IMG/VR virus record: IMGVR_UViG_2660238318_000012 | Length of the DNA: 16,061 bases | Strand: one strand, 5' to 3' | Source of the DNA: a virus | Lineage: Duplodnaviria; Heunggongvirae; Uroviricota; Caudoviricetes | Part shown: in pieces, positions 1 to 8,840 of the stretch | Numbering within the stretch: the first letter of the stretch is position 1 | Layout: the number at the start of each line of letters is the position of its first letter | The notes under the pieces: model-generated | The model's input: only the letters and a program-made list of their open reading frames with translations | Database searches by the model: none | What the model was told of the DNA's origin: nothing | Made by a program: the position numbers and the translations under genes

Positions 1-1461
1 ATGAAAAAATTACTGCGTCTTTTTTTCCCGCTCTCGCTGCGGGTACGTTTTCTGTTGGCAACGGCAGCGGTAGTACTGGTGCTTTCGCTTGCCTACGGAA
101 TGGTCGCGCTGATCGGTTATAGCGTCAGTTTCGATAAAACTACGTTTCGGCTGTTACGTGGCGAGAGCAATCTGTTCTATACCCTTGCGCAGTGGGAAAA
201 CAATAAGTTGCATGTCGAGTTACCCGAAAATATCGACAAGCAAAGCCCCACCATGACGCTAATTTATGATGAGAACGGGCAGCTTTTATGGGCGCAACGT
301 GACGTGCCCTGGCTGATGAAAATGATCCAGCCTGACTGGCTGAAATCGAATGGTTTTCATGAAATTGAAGCGGATGTTAACGATACCAGCCTCTTGCTGA
401 GTGGAGATCATTCGATACAGCAACAGTTGCAGGAAGTGCGGGAAGATGATGACGACGCGGAGATGACCCACTCGGTGGCGGTAAACGTCTACCCGGCAAC
501 ATCGCGGATGCCAAAATTAACCATTGTGGTGGTGGATACCATTCCGGTGGAGCTAAAAAGTTCCTATATGGTCTGGAGCTGGTTTATCTATGTGCTCTCA
601 GCCAATCTGCTGTTAGTGATCCCGCTGCTGTGGGTCGCCGCCTGGTGGAGTTTACGCCCCATCGAAGCCCTGGCAAAAGAAGTCCGCGAACTGGAAGAAC
701 ATAACCGCGAATTGCTCAATCCAGCCACAACGCGAGAACTGACCAGTCTGGTACGAAACCTGAACCGATTGTTAAAAAGTGAACGCGAACGTTACGACAA
801 ATACCGTACGACGCTCACCGACCTGACCCATAGTCTGAAAACGCCACTGGCGGTGCTGCAAAGTACGCTGCGTTCTCTGCGTAGTGAAAAGATGAGCGTC
901 AGTGATGCTGAGCCGGTAATGCTGGAGCAAATCAGCCGCATTTCACAGCAAATTGGCTACTACCTGCATCGTGCCAGTATGCGCGGCGGGACATTGCTCA
1001 GCCGCGAGCTGCATCCGGTCGCCCCACTGCTGGACAATCTCACCTCAGCGCTGAACAAAGTGTATCAACGCAAAGGGGTCAATATCTCTCTCGATATTTC
1101 GCCAGAGATCAGCTTTGTCGGTGAGCAGAACGATTTTGTCGAGGTGATGGGCAACGTGCTGGATAATGCCTGTAAATATTGCCTCGAGTTTGTCGAAATT
1201 TCTGCAAGGCAAACCGACGAGCATCTCTATATTGTGGTCGAGGATGATGGCCCCGGTATTCCATTAAGCAAGCGAGAGGTCATTTTCGACCGTGGTCAAC
1301 GGGTTGATACTTTACGCCCTGGGCAAGGTGTAGGGCTGGCGGTAGCCCGCGAAATCACCGAGCAATATGAGGGTAAAATCGTCGCCGGAGAGAGCATGCT
1401 GGGCGGTGCGCGGATGGAGGTGATTTTTGGTCGCCAGCATTCTGCGCCGAAAGATGAATAA
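1..1461 (+). CDS. phoQ: Sensor histidine kinase PhoQ of the PhoPQ two-component system, complete 486 aa
   Basis: Full-length ORF with N-terminal transmembrane segment, periplasmic acidic patch ([15 protein letters not shown]), HAMP region, H-box ([12 protein letters not shown]) and ATPase G-boxes ([16 protein letters not shown]). Sequence recognised as E. coli PhoQ from memory; no search run. Confidence 0.97.
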
Positions 1462-1973: not shown

Positions 1974-2008
1974 GTCACGGTGTGTCACTGGTTGTCACTC
2001 TCCGTCAC
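1974..2008 (+). repeat. Four GTCAC repeats at exact 10-bp phasing; candidate arm-type recombinase or excisionase binding array
   Basis: GTCAC at 1974, 1984, 1994, 2004; adjacent palindromes ACGGTT-A-AACCGT (1955-1967) and ATGACGT-N5-ACGTCAT (1902-1920). Confidence 0.4.
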
Positions 2009-2257
2009 GATTGAGGTGGTGGTCATTCTGCCCGACCGCGCATCTTTGCGCTATCGGGAATATCAAACAGTTACCTCGCCGACTTCCTCAAATTGAGGTT
2101 TCCGAAAATATCAGAGCGGGTTAGCGATTAAGCTGACGAGTAATTAAACTGCGAAAATTTCGTAGTTTCTGAATATATTCCGGCCTGCTGGTTAACAGTC
2201 CTCAGATGTGAGGGATGTAGCCAGCGCAATTTTGCGCTTTGCTTTAATCTCAGTGAG

Positions 2258-2552: not shown

Positions 2553-4214
2553 TTACACCCCGCTAAATTCTTCCAGTTTCTGGCGGTGGCTGTCGCTTAT
2601 ATCAAAAGCAAAATCCTCATGCTCTGCCTGGAATGTACCAAACGCCATCAGCGCCGCTACGCTCGGGTCTATCTTGTTCGGTGATTTTTTCTTGTTCGGC
2701 TTGATATTGGCGTTCGCGTCACTCTGCATCACGACGTTACTCATCGACCAGGACAACACCGGATCGCCACGATGCACAATCACCCTGCGGTTAACAAAAA
2801 CTTCGAACGATTTCGCCGCCGGACTGAATCTGAGGTAGGTTTGCGGGAACGGCTCCACCTCAAAACCAGCCCCCTGTAATTGCGTCCTGAGATGCGTGGC
2901 GTTCCACGTATCAAAGCCCACCAGCCTGATATTAAATTTCTCCGCATCCTGCATGATGTCATCTCTGATCCGGTCGTAATCAATGCAGTCACCTGGCGTT
3001 GTGCGTATCCAGCCCGCTTTAGCCCACTGGCGATAGACAGCGCGGTTTTTATTGGCGGGGTTCTGTAGCTGGAACTCCGGCAGATAATGACGGGAAATCA
3101 GCATAATGGTTTTACCGACCGGAAAGGCATAGCATACGCTGGAAATATCGCTGGTTGATGATAAGTCCAGCCCCGCGTAACACTCCTGACCGTGTAAATC
3201 TTCCTCCGTGAACGTTCCGGCACACTCAGCCCATGCACCATTACCCATCCACGGGGTAGTCCCCTGACACCAGATATTAAATCGCTTTGTCATCATCTCC
3301 ACCCACTGCGACGGAATACCCCGCGCTTTCTGGATGGTTGAGGCCAGTTTTTCACGATCCACGGAAACATCAATATTAGGGTTCGCCTTTATCCACATCG
3401 CCGGATCATCAACCTCGTTTTCGTCGTCCAGTTCGTAAATCAGTACAAAAATTGAATCGTTAACCTCTTCGCCGTCCAGGATCTGGCAGCAATAATCATA
3501 GTGCTGTTTACAGGCTGAAACGACGTTACTGCCCGATGTGGTAATGGCAAATAACAGCCCTTCGGGACGTGCGCCCATCCCCAGCTCAAGCGCGGAATAA
3601 ACGCCGTTATCGGGGTGTAGGTGGTATTCGTCCACGATGGAAAGACTGGGGTTTGTCCCCTCGATGGTTGCCGCTTTTGCTGCCAGCGGCTTTAACAGGC
3701 TGTTGCTTTTCGGGTGTATCACCTTATGCGCCTGAATATTCACCCGCCTGCGTAACGGTCGGGATAAAAGGCACATCTGACGCGCATTATCAAACACGAT
3801 CCGCGCCTGGTCACGGCTCACCGCTGCGGTGTAGATATCCTGCTGACCGTTCTCCATAATCAGAAACCAGTTAGCCAGAATCGCGGCGGTCGTGGATTTC
3901 GCATTTTTGCGCGGCACTTCGATAAAGGCGCTCGTGTATTTGCGCCGTCCGGTGGCCTTAACCTTAAAGCCGAGGATGCACGCAAAGGCGAACTGCTGCC
4001 ACGGCTCCAGCTCAATGGGTCTGCCACGCATCGGTCCTTTTACGTGCGGGCACACCCTGGAAAAGGCAATAAACCGCTCCACAACCTCACGATCGAACGT
4101 GTAAAGGGGGCTTTTAAGGTCCGAAAAGTACCGTTTAACAGCCTGTTTTAACCGTTTACAGGCCGGAATTTTGCCCGTTTTTACGTCTTCTGCGTACTTA
4201 TTCCAGGCGGTCAA
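2553..4214 (-). CDS. terL: Terminase large subunit, 553 aa
   Basis: Walker A-like VPRKNAKST near the N-terminus, ATPase then nuclease domain layout typical of Terminase_1 family; 5' end overlaps terS by 17 nt. Confidence 0.95.
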   Translation of the reverse strand: MTAWNKYAEDVKTGKIPACKRLKQAVKRYFSDLKSPLYTFDREVVERFIAFSRVCPHVKGPMRGRPIELEPWQQFAFACILGFKVKATGRRKYTSAFIEVPRKNAKSTTAAILANWFLIMENGQQDIYTAAVSRDQARIVFDNARQMCLLSRPLRRRVNIQAHKVIHPKSNSLLKPLAAKAATIEGTNPSLSIVDEYHLHPDNGVYSALELGMGARPEGLLFAITTSGSNVVSACKQHYDYCCQILDGEEVNDSIFVLIYELDDENEVDDPAMWIKANPNIDVSVDREKLASTIQKARGIPSQWVEMMTKRFNIWCQGTTPWMGNGAWAECAGTFTEEDLHGQECYAGLDLSSTSDISSVCYAFPVGKTIMLISRHYLPEFQLQNPANKNRAVYRQWAKAGWIRTTPGDCIDYDRIRDDIMQDAEKFNIRLVGFDTWNATHLRTQLQGAGFEVEPFPQTYLRFSPAAKSFEVFVNRRVIVHRGDPVLSWSMSNVVMQSDANANIKPNKKKSPNKIDPSVAALMAFGTFQAEHEDFAFDISDSHRQKLEEFSGV

Positions 4215-4509
4215 GCTCGTCCTCTTCTTCTGTTTCCGGTGGATTTTTACGGCGGCTTATCGGGTCAAAACCGAGCAAGGAGGCCATTTTTATCATCACT
4301 CTTTCAGCGTCGGATTTTGCGCTTAATGCGGGGTTTCTGCTCTCGCCGCCCTGACTGTTAACAATGCTGAACCCGCGCGCCGCAAGGTCTGCAACGGCTT
4401 TCCGGTAAATGGAGTAGTTGACGCAATACAGTTCCAGATTGCTCCAGTCGGCGGGGGTCAGGTCTCCCCGTTCCGCAAGCTGCCGCGATTTTTCCCGCCA
4501 CTGCTTCAC
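4198..4509 (-). CDS. terS: Terminase small subunit, P27 family; annotated GTG start probably truncated by a frameshift (true start likely ATG near 4570)
   Basis: Core resembles P27-family TerS. The conserved N-terminal motif KPDPAYLDDIAVKQW lies in frame upstream of the GTG but is cut by TGA; an ATG with GAGG RBS sits in the -1 frame across a G6 tract. Confidence 0.8.
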   Translation of the reverse strand: MKQWREKSRQLAERGDLTPADWSNLELYCVNYSIYRKAVADLAARGFSIVNSQGGESRNPALSAKSDAERVMIKMASLLGFDPISRRKNPPETEEEDELDRLE

Positions 4510-4745
4510 GGCGATATCATCCAGGTAGGCGGGGTCGGGTTTGTCCTGAAAACGCCCCCCACCCCGTCATACAGCCTCATCAGCGATTGCGGAAACATTC
4601 CATAACCTCGCGGTCACGGTCGGTTAATCGCTTCGCTGTGATGCGTTCTGCGCGTCCTGACGCTTTATCTTTATGCCCTGTTTCCTGTGTCTTCCATGCG
4701 TCACGCTGCCTTATAAGTCCACGGATAAGGCGGTTTTGTTCCCGC

Positions 4746-5186
4746 TCATTCATCAGCGTCATACATCCAGTTATTGCGGTTAGCAGCCCGTTCTTCCTCT
4801 TCACGAAATCCACCTGCGGCACGCTTGCTTTTTGTTGCCGGATCAAGCCATTTCGTTTTCTGGTTATGACACGCCTGGCACAATGGTTGATGGTTCCATT
4901 CGGGCCAGAAGAGAACATCATCACCGCCATTAATCGGGATAATGTGATCCACCACCACGGCGGGCGTATATATCCCCTTCTCAAGGCATCGCACGCATAA
5001 CGGGTTTTTACTCAGATACATGGCGCGGTATTTGTCCCACTGTCTGGAATATCCACGCGCGCGGCGGTGTCCTCGTCTGGCATCCTCTGCACGCCATGCC
5101 GCCCGCCTGTGCTCCTCACACTTGCCGGATTTAACGCGCCTGTTACAGCCTGGTTCTGTGCATCGTCTTAATGGTTGCCACGGCAT
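4746..5186 (-). CDS. HNH endonuclease associated with cos-type terminase, 146 aa
   Basis: Cys-rich N-terminus (CTEPGCNRRVKSGKCEEH), HNH core (VDHIIPINGG ... NHQPLCQACHNQK); located immediately upstream of terS as in HK97-like packaging modules. Confidence 0.9.
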   Translation of the reverse strand: MPWQPLRRCTEPGCNRRVKSGKCEEHRRAAWRAEDARRGHRRARGYSRQWDKYRAMYLSKNPLCVRCLEKGIYTPAVVVDHIIPINGGDDVLFWPEWNHQPLCQACHNQKTKWLDPATKSKRAAGGFREEEERAANRNNWMYDADE

Positions 5187-5817: not shown

Positions 5818-7069
5818 TCCGGTTTTTCTCCCTCGCTGATTTTTACTTCCTGTTTCCATGCCTGGCTGAACTCATCACCACCATCACGCGGTGACAGCCC
5901 TTCACGTTCGCGGGCTTCGTTCGGACACATAACGTCGGATTTTATGCCGCGCTCATAGGTGGCAAAGCGTTCGCCAGGTGTGGCCCGTAACAGGTCCGCG
6001 CTGTCAAACTCCACCTGATACCGGATACCAGGTACAGGCGAGGCCACCAGCAAGGCGTTTTTTATCTGCTGCTCAAAGTTCGCCAGCCACGGGCGCATCG
6101 TCATGNNNNNNNNNNNNNNNNNNNNNNNNNNNNNNNNNNNNNNNNNNNNNNNNNNNNNNNNNNNNNNNNNNNNNNNNNNNNNNNNNNNNNNNTGTTGCTG
6201 TATTCCTGCAAAAAAATCGGCGAGACGTTGAACATTCGGGCGATGTCTTCAATGGTGAAGCGACGGGAGGCCAGCCATTCGGCATCCTGATTACTCATGC
6301 CCAGCTGCTGATAGCTCATCCCCCCTTCAAGGATGGGCGTTTTTCCGGCGTTTCTGGCCCCTTTGTAGCGTTCCAGTGCGGCTAATGCCTGTTTGCCCCT
6401 CACGCCGTCCAGCCATTCGCCTGACGTGATAACCCCTGCCGCCATCATGCCATCACGCATCACGCTCGCGCCGTGGCGTTGTTGGGCCAGCCCAAGCCCC
6501 AGCGATTCGCGGCAGATGGTTACAGGTGAGCGCCCCATAAAACCGTCATCCGTGGAGTAACGAAGGTGGAGAACCTCCCACGGTAAATAGTTGCGGATGT
6601 TTCCGGTGTAGGCGTCAGTGATGCAGTAGCGCCAGTTATGATCACCTGTCTGCTCCACGTTCACCGACTGCGGCGGGTAAGGATGTAAAGCCGCCGGAAA
6701 ACCATCACGCCCCCACTGAATAACCGCATAAGCATTACCACTTAACAGGCAGTAGCGGATCATCATTCGCTTAAACTGGTAGGGTGTCTGCCACGCGTTC
6801 GGGCGCTCGTTGAGGATGTGATCGACCGGATGAGAATCAAGCCATTCGCGGGCCTCCTTCCCCTTCTCATTGCGTACCAGGTACAGGTAACACGGCATGG
6901 TAGCCACCGCGTCAGAGATGACCGTGACGGCGTTCATGACGGCGGGGAGTGATTCCGCTGTCCCAGATGATACGTACTCACCCGCCCCCGTGTTCGATGT
7001 GCCGGCCAGCGCCATAAATTCATCAAGCGTCATGCTGCGCTGCTCTTTTTTTCGTCTGAAAGGCCACAT
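5814..7069 (-). CDS. Portal protein, HK97 family, interrupted by an assembly gap (N run 6106-6192)
   Basis: N-terminal 322-aa ORF (6101-7069) and C-terminal 96-aa ORF (5814-6104) both read as portal sequence; frame across the gap is undefined. Confidence 0.85.
6106..6192. other. Assembly gap, 87 N
   Basis: Run of n characters directly visible in the sequence. Confidence 0.99.
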
Positions 7070-7682: not shown

Positions 7683-8012
7683 TTAATCGTCGTCTTCCGG
7701 CAGTGCCAGAATCTTGATCGCGTTCGAATCCACCACGCCACCGCCTAAATATTTTTGCGTGAAAATTTTGATGAATCCTGGTTCTGTCAGGTTGTCCGGT
7801 CTGGTGCGAACACCTGTTTCGTGATCAACAATGTAGTAACCGCGTTTGAAGTCACCCAGGGCAATAACGTTATCAGGCATAAACTCCAGATATTCGACCG
7901 GAAGGCCCAGCAACGTATCAGGATCACCCGCCTGTAAACGGTCGCGCCAGATATAATCACCGTTCGCGTTCTTCACCTTCTGAAGTTTTGCCGCCGTCGT
8001 GGAGTTAACCAC
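7683..8012 (-). CDS. Major capsid protein, C-terminal 109-aa fragment; in frame with and directly after a TGA that ends the upstream fragment
   Basis: Contains HK97-fold C-terminal consensus (ALGDFKRGYYIVDHETGVRTRP ... GGGVVDSNAIKILAL); the ORF track places it in the same frame as 8013-8888, starting immediately after its stop. Confidence 0.8.
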   Translation of the reverse strand: MVNSTTAAKLQKVKNANGDYIWRDRLQAGDPDTLLGLPVEYLEFMPDNVIALGDFKRGYYIVDHETGVRTRPDNLTEPGFIKIFTQKYLGGGVVDSNAIKILALPEDDD

Positions 8013-8840
8013 TCAGACCGCGTTTTTGCGGTATTTTTTACGTAATGCAAATTTCAGGTCGATCAGCGGGTCCGCAGATGTCCACGCCAGAGATTCGGAA
8101 GGTTTAATTACCTGCAACGTACCAAAATCACGCTCTTTGTCGTTCTTCTCTGCACGGGGTACGGATAAAAAACCTTTTGCTTTTTTGTCACCGTCGCCCA
8201 CAACCAGATCGCTTTCTTCGGTTTCCGTGAAGGTGTCGCCAATCTCACCCGTCAGCCATGAAAGGATGTCCACATCGGAAAAATCCACGATTTCCTGTGT
8301 GGTGCGCGGGTACGCATAGACCGGATACAGCTTAATGCTCACCTCGTTAATCTGCGGGGTGCTGGTCTGTTCGCGTGCCTTACCCTCTTCACCGTGGTTA
8401 ACGGTCGCACCGCCAGCGGAAACAAGCTGCTTAAACTCGTTGCTGCTGATTTTCTTCACGGTACAGATGCGACGCATGGTGGATTCATCCGCCAGCATTC
8501 GCATGATTTCGGTGTTCAGTTCAGGGATAACGGTATAACCACCATCAGCGGGAACGCCTGTACTTAATGCGCGGGTTTCACCGGTCAGAATGTAGTTACG
8601 TAGTTCTGCGGGGTCAGTGGTCTGGCTGCTTTTACCTGGCTTGCTGCGCTCTTCGTCTGCAATGGCTTCAAGGCGGGAAATGTCTTTATCGAGGGATTCA
8701 GCTTTAGCGCGTAATTCGTCAAATTTTGCGCCCTCAGCATCGTTAAGACTGCGGTTTTCTTTTTCAGCGTTCTCCAGCATGTCGCGCATCTGATTTTTAA
8801 TGGCGGTTTTCTGCTGGCGTAATTCGATTATTCTCTGCAT
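8013..8840 (-). CDS. Major capsid protein, HK97 fold, N-terminal fragment with coiled-coil delta/scaffold domain; ends at in-frame TGA. Longest ORF begins at GTG 8888
   Basis: ATG at 8838-8840 has AGGA RBS; coiled-coil N-terminus (MQRIIELRQQKTAIKNQMRDMLENAEKENRSL ...) then capsid body. Fragments sum to about 384 aa, the size of an HK97-type capsid protein. Confidence 0.8.
   Translation of the reverse strand: MQRIIELRQQKTAIKNQMRDMLENAEKENRSLNDAEGAKFDELRAKAESLDKDISRLEAIADEERSKPGKSSQTTDPAELRNYILTGETRALSTGVPADGGYTVIPELNTEIMRMLADESTMRRICTVKKISSNEFKQLVSAGGATVNHGEEGKAREQTSTPQINEVSIKLYPVYAYPRTTQEIVDFSDVDILSWLTGEIGDTFTETEESDLVVGDGDKKAKGFLSVPRAEKNDKERDFGTLQVIKPSESLAWTSADPLIDLKFALRKKYRKNAV

Follow-up and report, generated by a model that had tools for sequence, protein, structure and literature searches.

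[quoted passage not shown] The window, the whole stretch that was analyzed, is the 16,061-nt IMG/VR record IMGVR_UViG_2660238318_000012, and its terS region was examined on the minus strand. The original prediction placed the lesion in a G6 homopolymer: a P27-type N-terminal motif lies upstream of the GTG but is closed by a TGA, an ATG preceded by GAGG lies in the adjacent frame, and contraction of the run would fuse the two into a normal TerS. The minus strand reads ...CGC TGA TGAGGCTGT ATG ACGGGGTGGGGGGCGTTTTCAGGACAAACCCGACCCCGCCTACCTGGATGATATCGCC GTG AAG CAG TGG..., and the features that the prediction named (GAGG, ATG, TGA, G6 and GTG) are all present as listed below, together with those identified in this analysis. 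A 1-nt contraction of G6 would indeed join the ATG frame to the terS frame, and the 5′ end of terS is truly disrupted, with the start and the N-terminal arm gone.

4578-4575, minus strand: GAGG, just after the stop of the upstream 60-aa ORF (CGC TGA TGA GGC); taken by the original prediction for a Shine-Dalgarno sequence
4570-4568, minus strand: ATG proposed by the original prediction as the terS start
4517..4570, minus strand: chance ORF of 17 codons, MTGWGAFSGQTRPRLPG and a stop, opened by the ATG at 4570-4568 (translation)
4569-4567, minus strand: TGA in the terS frame
4543..4565, minus strand: conserved non-coding block GGGGTGGGGGGCGTTTTCAGGAC, with G6 (4555-4560) inside it, probably belonging to the island's cos region (alignments of relatives)
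4560-4555, minus strand: G6 (C6 on the plus strand)
4528..4534, minus strand: deletion junction, the sole remaining copy of the 7-bp direct repeat CCCCGCC (three-way alignments and in-silico deletion)
4198..4509, minus strand: terS remnant, a 103-codon GTG ORF (Pfam PF05119, NCBIfam TIGR01558, identity check against IAI39)
4509-4507, minus strand: GTG of the terS remnant
4200-4198, minus strand: terS stop

In translation, the terS frame 5′ of the GTG reads ...RFQDKPDPAYLDDIAVKQW and, after its stop, RGGGRFQDKPDPAYLDDIA. The 17-codon ORF stops 7 nt 5′ of the GTG, and no Shine-Dalgarno-like sequence was seen 5′ of the GTG in the minus-strand sequence of the window. The remnant is 100% identical to residues 16-118 of the TerS of Escherichia coli IAI39; it has no start codon, ribosome-binding region or N-terminal arm, and codons of TerS origin begin at the deletion junction (4534).

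Alignment to intact relatives revealed a 97-bp deletion, not a frameshift. A 651-bp query over the region matched 515 complete E. coli genomes, and every top match was split in two pieces spanning approximately 748 bp. In the alignment, 97 bp (98 in some alleles) that are present in E. coli IAI39 and 2014C-3307 are absent from the window, and outside this gap the window is identical to both, including GACGGGGTGGGGGGCGTTTTCAGGAC. Two CCCCGCC copies stand 97 bp apart in intact relatives and one is kept in the window (4534-4528); in-silico removal of the DNA between the repeats of IAI39 yields the window sequence exactly. The missing segment consists of the initial 27 nt of terS, preceded by 70 nt of non-coding DNA rich in A/T tracts, and it carries the true terS start ATGGCAAGACCACCGAAAGCCCCCGCC (MARPPKAPA...), also given as MARPPKAPAYLDDIAVKQW... 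As judged from these alignments, the real lesion of terS is a 97-bp deletion between two 7-bp CCCCGCC repeats, with loss of the start codon. The reverse polarity, an insertion of 97 bp in E. coli, was rejected: the segment was judged ancestral because it holds the conserved terS start.

This deletion also accounts for the motif read upstream of the GTG, which proved authentic in part. AYLDDIAVKQW is its sole genuine TerS portion, and "KPDP" is translated non-coding DNA that the deletion set beside terS codon 9/10; KPDPAY resembles KAPAY because the deletion endpoints resemble each other (AAACCCGACCCCGCC versus AAAGCCCCCGCC). Mechanistically, the event joined the CCCCGCC in non-coding DNA 3′ of the G-rich block to the CCCCGCC in terS codons 7-9, and endpoints of this kind are what replication slippage or microhomology-mediated deletion usually leaves behind. 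Besides the 70 nt of intergenic DNA, it removed the region of translation initiation with its ATG and, within the first 6-9 codons, the N-terminal arm MARPPKAP, and it left a 103-codon GTG ORF, with no recognizable ribosome-binding site, behind an untouched G4-T-G6 block.

The distribution of the deletion was assessed in complete genomes, draft assemblies and metagenomes. A 90-bp sequence strictly inside the deleted segment was found at 579 places, spread over 534 complete E. coli genomes, and the flanks at 558 places; by these counts, no deletion allele was seen among complete E. coli genomes. The exact 43-nt junction was found in S. flexneri SFBU1023, which has the same gap as the window in a three-way alignment. 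A look-up of the 103-aa product located this junction, again accompanied by G6, in a metagenome scaffold from ENA (L011, with 11 similar places), and three unlabelled NCBI draft assemblies (L013, L014 and L015) carry it with G6 as well; G6 was present in all deletion-bearing copies inspected. At least 1000 contigs, which were checked in part, have the 103-aa product on record, and some of them have other lesions in place of the 97-bp deletion; the accessions named Shigella flexneri are AAN42762.1, AAP16651.1, ABF03368.1 and ADA73543.1. Because the junction is identical in several independent assemblies, the comparison of these sequences establishes the deletion as real and inherited in S. flexneri, and sequencing or assembly error is excluded as the source of the 97-bp gap. 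Small deletions at short direct repeats have formed pseudogenes in the course of Shigella genome reduction, and the present lesion is a typical case: a clonally inherited, microhomology-flanked deletion inactivates a mobile-element gene, with nothing notably different.

We then considered what the G-rich block represents in relatives that retain terS. E. coli IAI39, 2014C-3307 and O157:H7 86-24, all with an intact 118-aa TerS, have exactly the G4-T-G6 tract of the window, and in the PGAP annotation of IAI39 the 60-aa ORF ends at CGC TGA, followed by a 122-nt spacer and then the 118-aa TerS. GGGGTGGGGG and GTTTTCAGGAC are invariant in 7 diverse aligned elements, one from Klebsiella, and the bases 5′ of the block vary among them (GTATGAC, GTCAGAG, GCCGGAC, CACCGAT). 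[quoted passage not shown]

The best TerS-derived IMG/VR loci, 80 in number, were retrieved by TerS peptide patterns only and are therefore unbiased as to the G-rich block. The block is found in every one of the 80, 84-87 nt 5′ of the terS ATG, and every one encodes M[A/S]RPPK.PAYL and agrees with intact TerS from its first residue. Over the intact elements as a whole, the tract occupies non-coding DNA 84-93 nt before the genuine terS ATG. The second G-run is 5 nt long in 44 of these loci, 6 in 32, 7 in 3 and 8 in 1, so that the length variation which the original prediction suggested looking for exists (5-8), among elements with intact TerS. The ATG that it proposed is present in 29 of the 80 and absent from 51, and in relatives with intact TerS the ORF that it opens has 31 codons and no relation to TerS. 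A second set of 120 IMG/VR loci, found via the block, gave the same picture for the tract, and the deletion occurred in none of them (0/120). Across the sequences compared, the terS frame does not depend on how long the tract is, and the proposed ATG, the GAGG and the G-run fall within a conserved non-coding block (GGGGTGGGGG..GTTTTCAGGAC) approximately 85 nt 5′ of the genuine start. One E. coli lineage (e.g., L006 around 364-505) keeps the frame 5′ of terS open through the block; automatic callers report a 165-aa TerS for this lineage (56 of 120 cluster representatives; P0035-P0098) and PGAP gives 118 aa, and the 165-aa calls are probably over-extensions of the gene.

The TerS family itself provides a further view of the missing N-terminus. 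The genuine family N-terminus is M-A-R-P-P-K-A-P-A-Y-L-D-D-I-A, and in a 48-sequence alignment R3, P5, K6, P8 and L11 are conserved at 90% or more and Y10 is invariant. A 5.8-billion-protein search supplied 120 cluster representatives; the truncated Shigella form is the sole one among them to start at the equivalent of the GTG, and the shortest natural forms still begin MKAPKYLD. The GTG is therefore not a natural terS start, in line with the original prediction; the N-terminus, however, was lost by deletion and not by the frameshift that it invoked. The remnant scores above the curated cut-offs for both PF05119 (83.4 bits; cut-off 24.7) and TIGR01558 (51.7 bits; cut-off 45.6). Its PF05119 (Terminase_4) match covers profile positions 3-97 of 98, so the whole domain, which starts at residue 16 of intact TerS, is kept; its TIGR01558 match covers profile positions 13-99 versus 1-99 in the intact protein, where the match starts at residue 6. 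A complete N-terminus (profile positions 1-12; M-x-R-P-P-K-x-P-x-Y-L) is lacking from the GTG ORF. A low-confidence AlphaFold2 model of a full-length homolog, built from the 48-sequence alignment (pLDDT 62.9), suggests that residues 1-8 form an extended arm and residues 9-28 helix 1; on this low-confidence model, the GTG ORF would lack the first two turns of the predicted helix 1. A rare deletion-bearing variant, P0031 (139 aa; Logan, 4 contigs), reads the TGA equivalent to 4569-4567 as Leu, giving a 139-aa ORF fused to upstream sequence (…AVLRGGGRFQDKPDPAYLDD…); it reflects a mutation or an error.

The remainder of the window was annotated by Pfam scans and by synteny with the IAI39 island at the same site. 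The island is inserted between phoQ and roxA, and its gene order is int, alpA, DUF4222, primase, capsid, protease, portal, head completion, connector, HNH, 60-aa ORF, terS, terL and 93-aa ORF.

1-1461, plus strand: phoQ, flanking the island; intact, 486 aa
1462..16061, minus strand: island, between phoQ and its own integrase (Pfam scans and synteny with the IAI39 island)
14832-16061: integrase, Phage_integrase with Arm-DNA-binding domain (Pfam)
7683..8888, minus strand: major capsid gene, in which an in-frame stop (8013-8015) takes the place of W276
4746..5186, minus strand: HNH endonuclease gene of the packaging module (Pfam PF01844); intact, 146 aa, length as in IAI39
4580..4762, minus strand: 60-aa ORF between HNH and terS, conserved and intact (WP_000174068.1 in IAI39)
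2553..4214, minus strand: terL, intact, 553 aa, TTG start (4214) (Pfam TerL_ATPase and TerL_nuclease; 5 amino-acid differences from IAI39)

The replication and regulation module matched Phage_AlpA and D5_N/Pox_D5 primase, and the head and packaging genes matched, in order, Phage_capsid, Peptidase_S78, Phage_portal, Phage_HCP, Phage_connect_1, HNH, Terminase_4 and TerL; the 60-aa ORF had no Pfam match. The start of terL overlaps the 3′ end of terS by 17 nt, and terL translation is probably coupled to terS. Apart from the W276 stop, the capsid protein (385 aa) is 99% identical to an intact E. coli O103 allele, and this nonsense codon is a second inactivating lesion in the same island, bearing out the decaying element that the original prediction had offered as one possibility. 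A run of 87 N at 6106-6192 lies inside the portal gene, where IAI39 and S. flexneri SFBU1023 have 43 nt, and the portal appears split by it into 322 aa and 96 aa. An Rfam scan of the whole window found no family, and tail-related families were absent both from the ORFs scanned with Pfam and from the annotation of the syntenic IAI39 island. The regulatory region at 12637-13989 has no counterpart in the IAI39 island, the ORF at 13465-14211 (minus strand, 248 aa) has no Pfam match, and 267 bp at window 1986-2252 are absent from IAI39. Relative to the window and IAI39, the phoQ part of S. flexneri SFBU1023 (aligned to window 1-940) shows approximately 20 single-base indels and local scrambles, which look like assembly errors.

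The gene content and order of cf-PICIs have been described, with S. flexneri among the host species (bioRxiv 10.1101/2022.09.08.507074), and the window carries an S. flexneri cf-PICI. It has the integrase/AlpA/primase module and its own capsid, protease, portal and connector genes followed by hnh-terS-terL, with several genes damaged, and within the ORFs scanned it shows the expected size and lack of tail genes (approximately 15 kb). Like the cf-PICIs EcCIEDL933 and KpCIDSM30104 (bioRxiv 10.1101/2022.09.08.507074; 10.1101/2025.02.11.637232), it has the same module order over approximately 14.6 kb with no tail genes detected, and the HNH-to-terS region of the E. coli O157:H7 element is 97.9% identical to that of the window. 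Unlike the known cf-PICIs, the window copy is defective: its terS is without start and arm, probable cos DNA is deleted, and its capsid gene has a nonsense codon. These lesions predict failure of helper-induced excision, of small-capsid formation and of transfer.

HNH-dependent cos packaging of the HK97 type was reportedly described by Kala et al. in 2014. HK97 TerS binds 15-29 bp downstream of the cos cut, in an A-tract, via an arginine of its N-terminal arm (PMC11331095). As in HK97 packaging, the HNH gene of the window adjoins terS and terL, and cos would be expected between HNH and terS. Unlike the HK97 protein, the P27-family TerS of the window has no detectable sequence similarity to any solved TerS, and the analogy is functional only: a PDB sequence search with intact TerS matched no chain at E <= 1, and a Foldseek search of the TerS model (pLDDT 62.9) against the PDB returned nothing at E <= 0.001.

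A further indication of where cos may lie comes from vB_KppS-Ant (LR881103.1), a linear 16.5-kb record with the cf-PICI gene set. Its virion DNA came from K. pneumoniae DSM30104 and is >99% identical to part of that genome (PMC8006926). In the same paper it is described as a filamentous ssDNA prophage; it is a cf-PICI from the host of KpCIDSM30104, a cf-PICI that has been studied experimentally and has cohesive ends on the DNA that it packages (bioRxiv 10.1101/2025.02.11.637232). The vB_KppS-Ant record ends at ...GGGGTGGGGGAGGTTTTCAGGAC (exactly ...CAGGAC) and starts 22 nt before the terS ATG. L064, a contiguous copy 99.6% identical to it, has 69 extra nt between the record ends (L064 7079-7147), and these 69 nt are homologous to the non-coding DNA deleted in the window. 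The vB_KppS-Ant library was prepared with Nextera XT and assembled with SPAdes, with no re-orientation described. Tagmentation libraries under-represent physical DNA ends, and the cohesive ends are most simply placed inside those 69 nt. From this one virion-derived record and the analogy to HK97, the GGGGTGGGGG..GTTTTCAGGAC block plus the approximately 70 nt after it is a candidate cf-PICI cos region.

Several other sources were consulted on this region. Cos coordinates are not given in the cf-PICI papers (bioRxiv 10.1101/2022.09.08.507074; 10.1101/2025.02.11.637232), and termini are not reported in the Klebsiella phage paper (PMC8006926). Ends of IMG/VR contigs near the block were rejected as cos ends; they are inconsistent (12, 21, 22 and 39 nt after CAGGAC) and mostly belong to prophage predictions. 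Folded as a single strand, the intact intergenic DNA scored no better than shuffled sequences (z = 0.40). Neither a promoter nor a terminator was predicted on the sense strand, whether the intergenic region was scanned in its intact or its deleted form, and the deletion is therefore not obviously a promoter loss.

With the lesion and its surroundings defined, the alternative explanations can be weighed. The original prediction held that terS is interrupted by one extra G in G6, through a sequencing error, a fixed frameshift or phase variation controlling packaging, and that G5 would restore TerS from the ATG at 4570. A G5 contraction would give a 123-aa ORF that still scores as Terminase_4, and G-run length does differ among elements, as in homopolymer contingency loci subject to slipped-strand phase variation. 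The same G6 nevertheless stands 5′ of an intact 118-aa TerS in IAI39, 2014C-3307, O157:H7 86-24 and others, and G5, G6, G7 and G8 all occur with intact TerS. The required ATG is missing from 51 of 80 relatives, it and the GAGG lie in non-coding DNA of intact elements, and the family N-terminus is MARPPK.PAYL, not MTGWGRFQDKPDPAYL. Slipped-strand control is further contradicted by the constant G6 of the deletion-bearing copies inspected: unlike the run of a contingency locus, this one is outside coding sequence and unrelated to the terS frame, with no on/off lengths among related copies. A homopolymer sequencing error does not fit a G6 junction that is identical in the window, SFBU1023, three NCBI drafts and a metagenome scaffold. 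In any of these forms, an interruption at G6 is refuted by the alignments and extremely unlikely. That the 97-bp gap is an assembly artefact of one genome has a probability close to nil: the run of N in the portal gene does show that the record is not flawless, but the identical junction recurs in independent assemblies from different projects and technologies, and the 103-aa product occurs on at least 1000 contigs.

A different possibility accepts the deletion and supposes that a truncated TerS is expressed from the GTG at 4509, e.g., by re-initiation after the 17-codon ORF, with some packaging or decoy function. The ORF keeps the complete Pfam domain with 100% identity to the intact protein, the upstream stop lies only 7 nt before the GTG, so that re-initiation is conceivable, HNH and terL are intact in the window, and the truncated allele is very widespread. 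This wide distribution is, however, explained by clonal descent, and no Shine-Dalgarno-like sequence precedes the GTG. The ORF has lost the conserved N-terminal arm together with the initial two turns of helix 1 as predicted, and a start at the GTG equivalent occurs in 0 of 120 representatives besides the truncated Shigella form. The capsid gene carries a nonsense codon, and other island copies have additional HNH and terL lesions. We regard expression of a functional truncated TerS as unlikely. A more elaborate proposal, that the deletion created a new translational arrangement in which the 17-codon upstream ORF with its GAGG drives an arm-less TerS kept as a domesticated gene, e.g., as a decoy against HNH/cos phages or incoming cf-PICIs, is very unlikely.

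We consider it highly probable that the window holds an S. flexneri cf-PICI whose small-terminase gene is truncated by the 97-bp deletion, and that the island is immobilized and decaying. From a lesion whose structure and inheritance are established by the alignments and the recurrent junction, we infer the functional consequences: TerS would not be made, or would be made without its DNA-contacting arm; terL would lose translational coupling to terS; and the DNA most likely holding the cohesive-end cut site and the TerS binding site would be gone. In combination with the capsid nonsense codon, the deletion would leave the island unable to package itself. As a counterweight, HNH and terL are still intact in the window, and decay is not far advanced. 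This is ordinary decay and pseudogene formation in a known satellite family, and its practical value is mainly for annotation: the 103-aa "P27-family small terminase" of S. flexneri genomes is a 5′-truncated remnant, and its island is properly classed as a defective cf-PICI. The allele carried by S. flexneri is also a natural deletion of the candidate cf-PICI cos region, which may help students of these satellites.

Copies of terS that lack the deletion can yield the same 103-aa call from other causes, namely an ATG→ATA change, a C5→C4 frameshift in codons 7-9, or long-read homopolymer errors. The C5→C4 change occurs in GCA_015219765.1 and LR134246.1, and ATG→ATA in a Logan assembly (L018, L019 and L012, at approximately 2960-3000 of each locus); further lesions in HNH and terL occur in other copies. 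Of the two homopolymers, the genuine hot spot is the C5 run within terS rather than the G6 that lies upstream of it.
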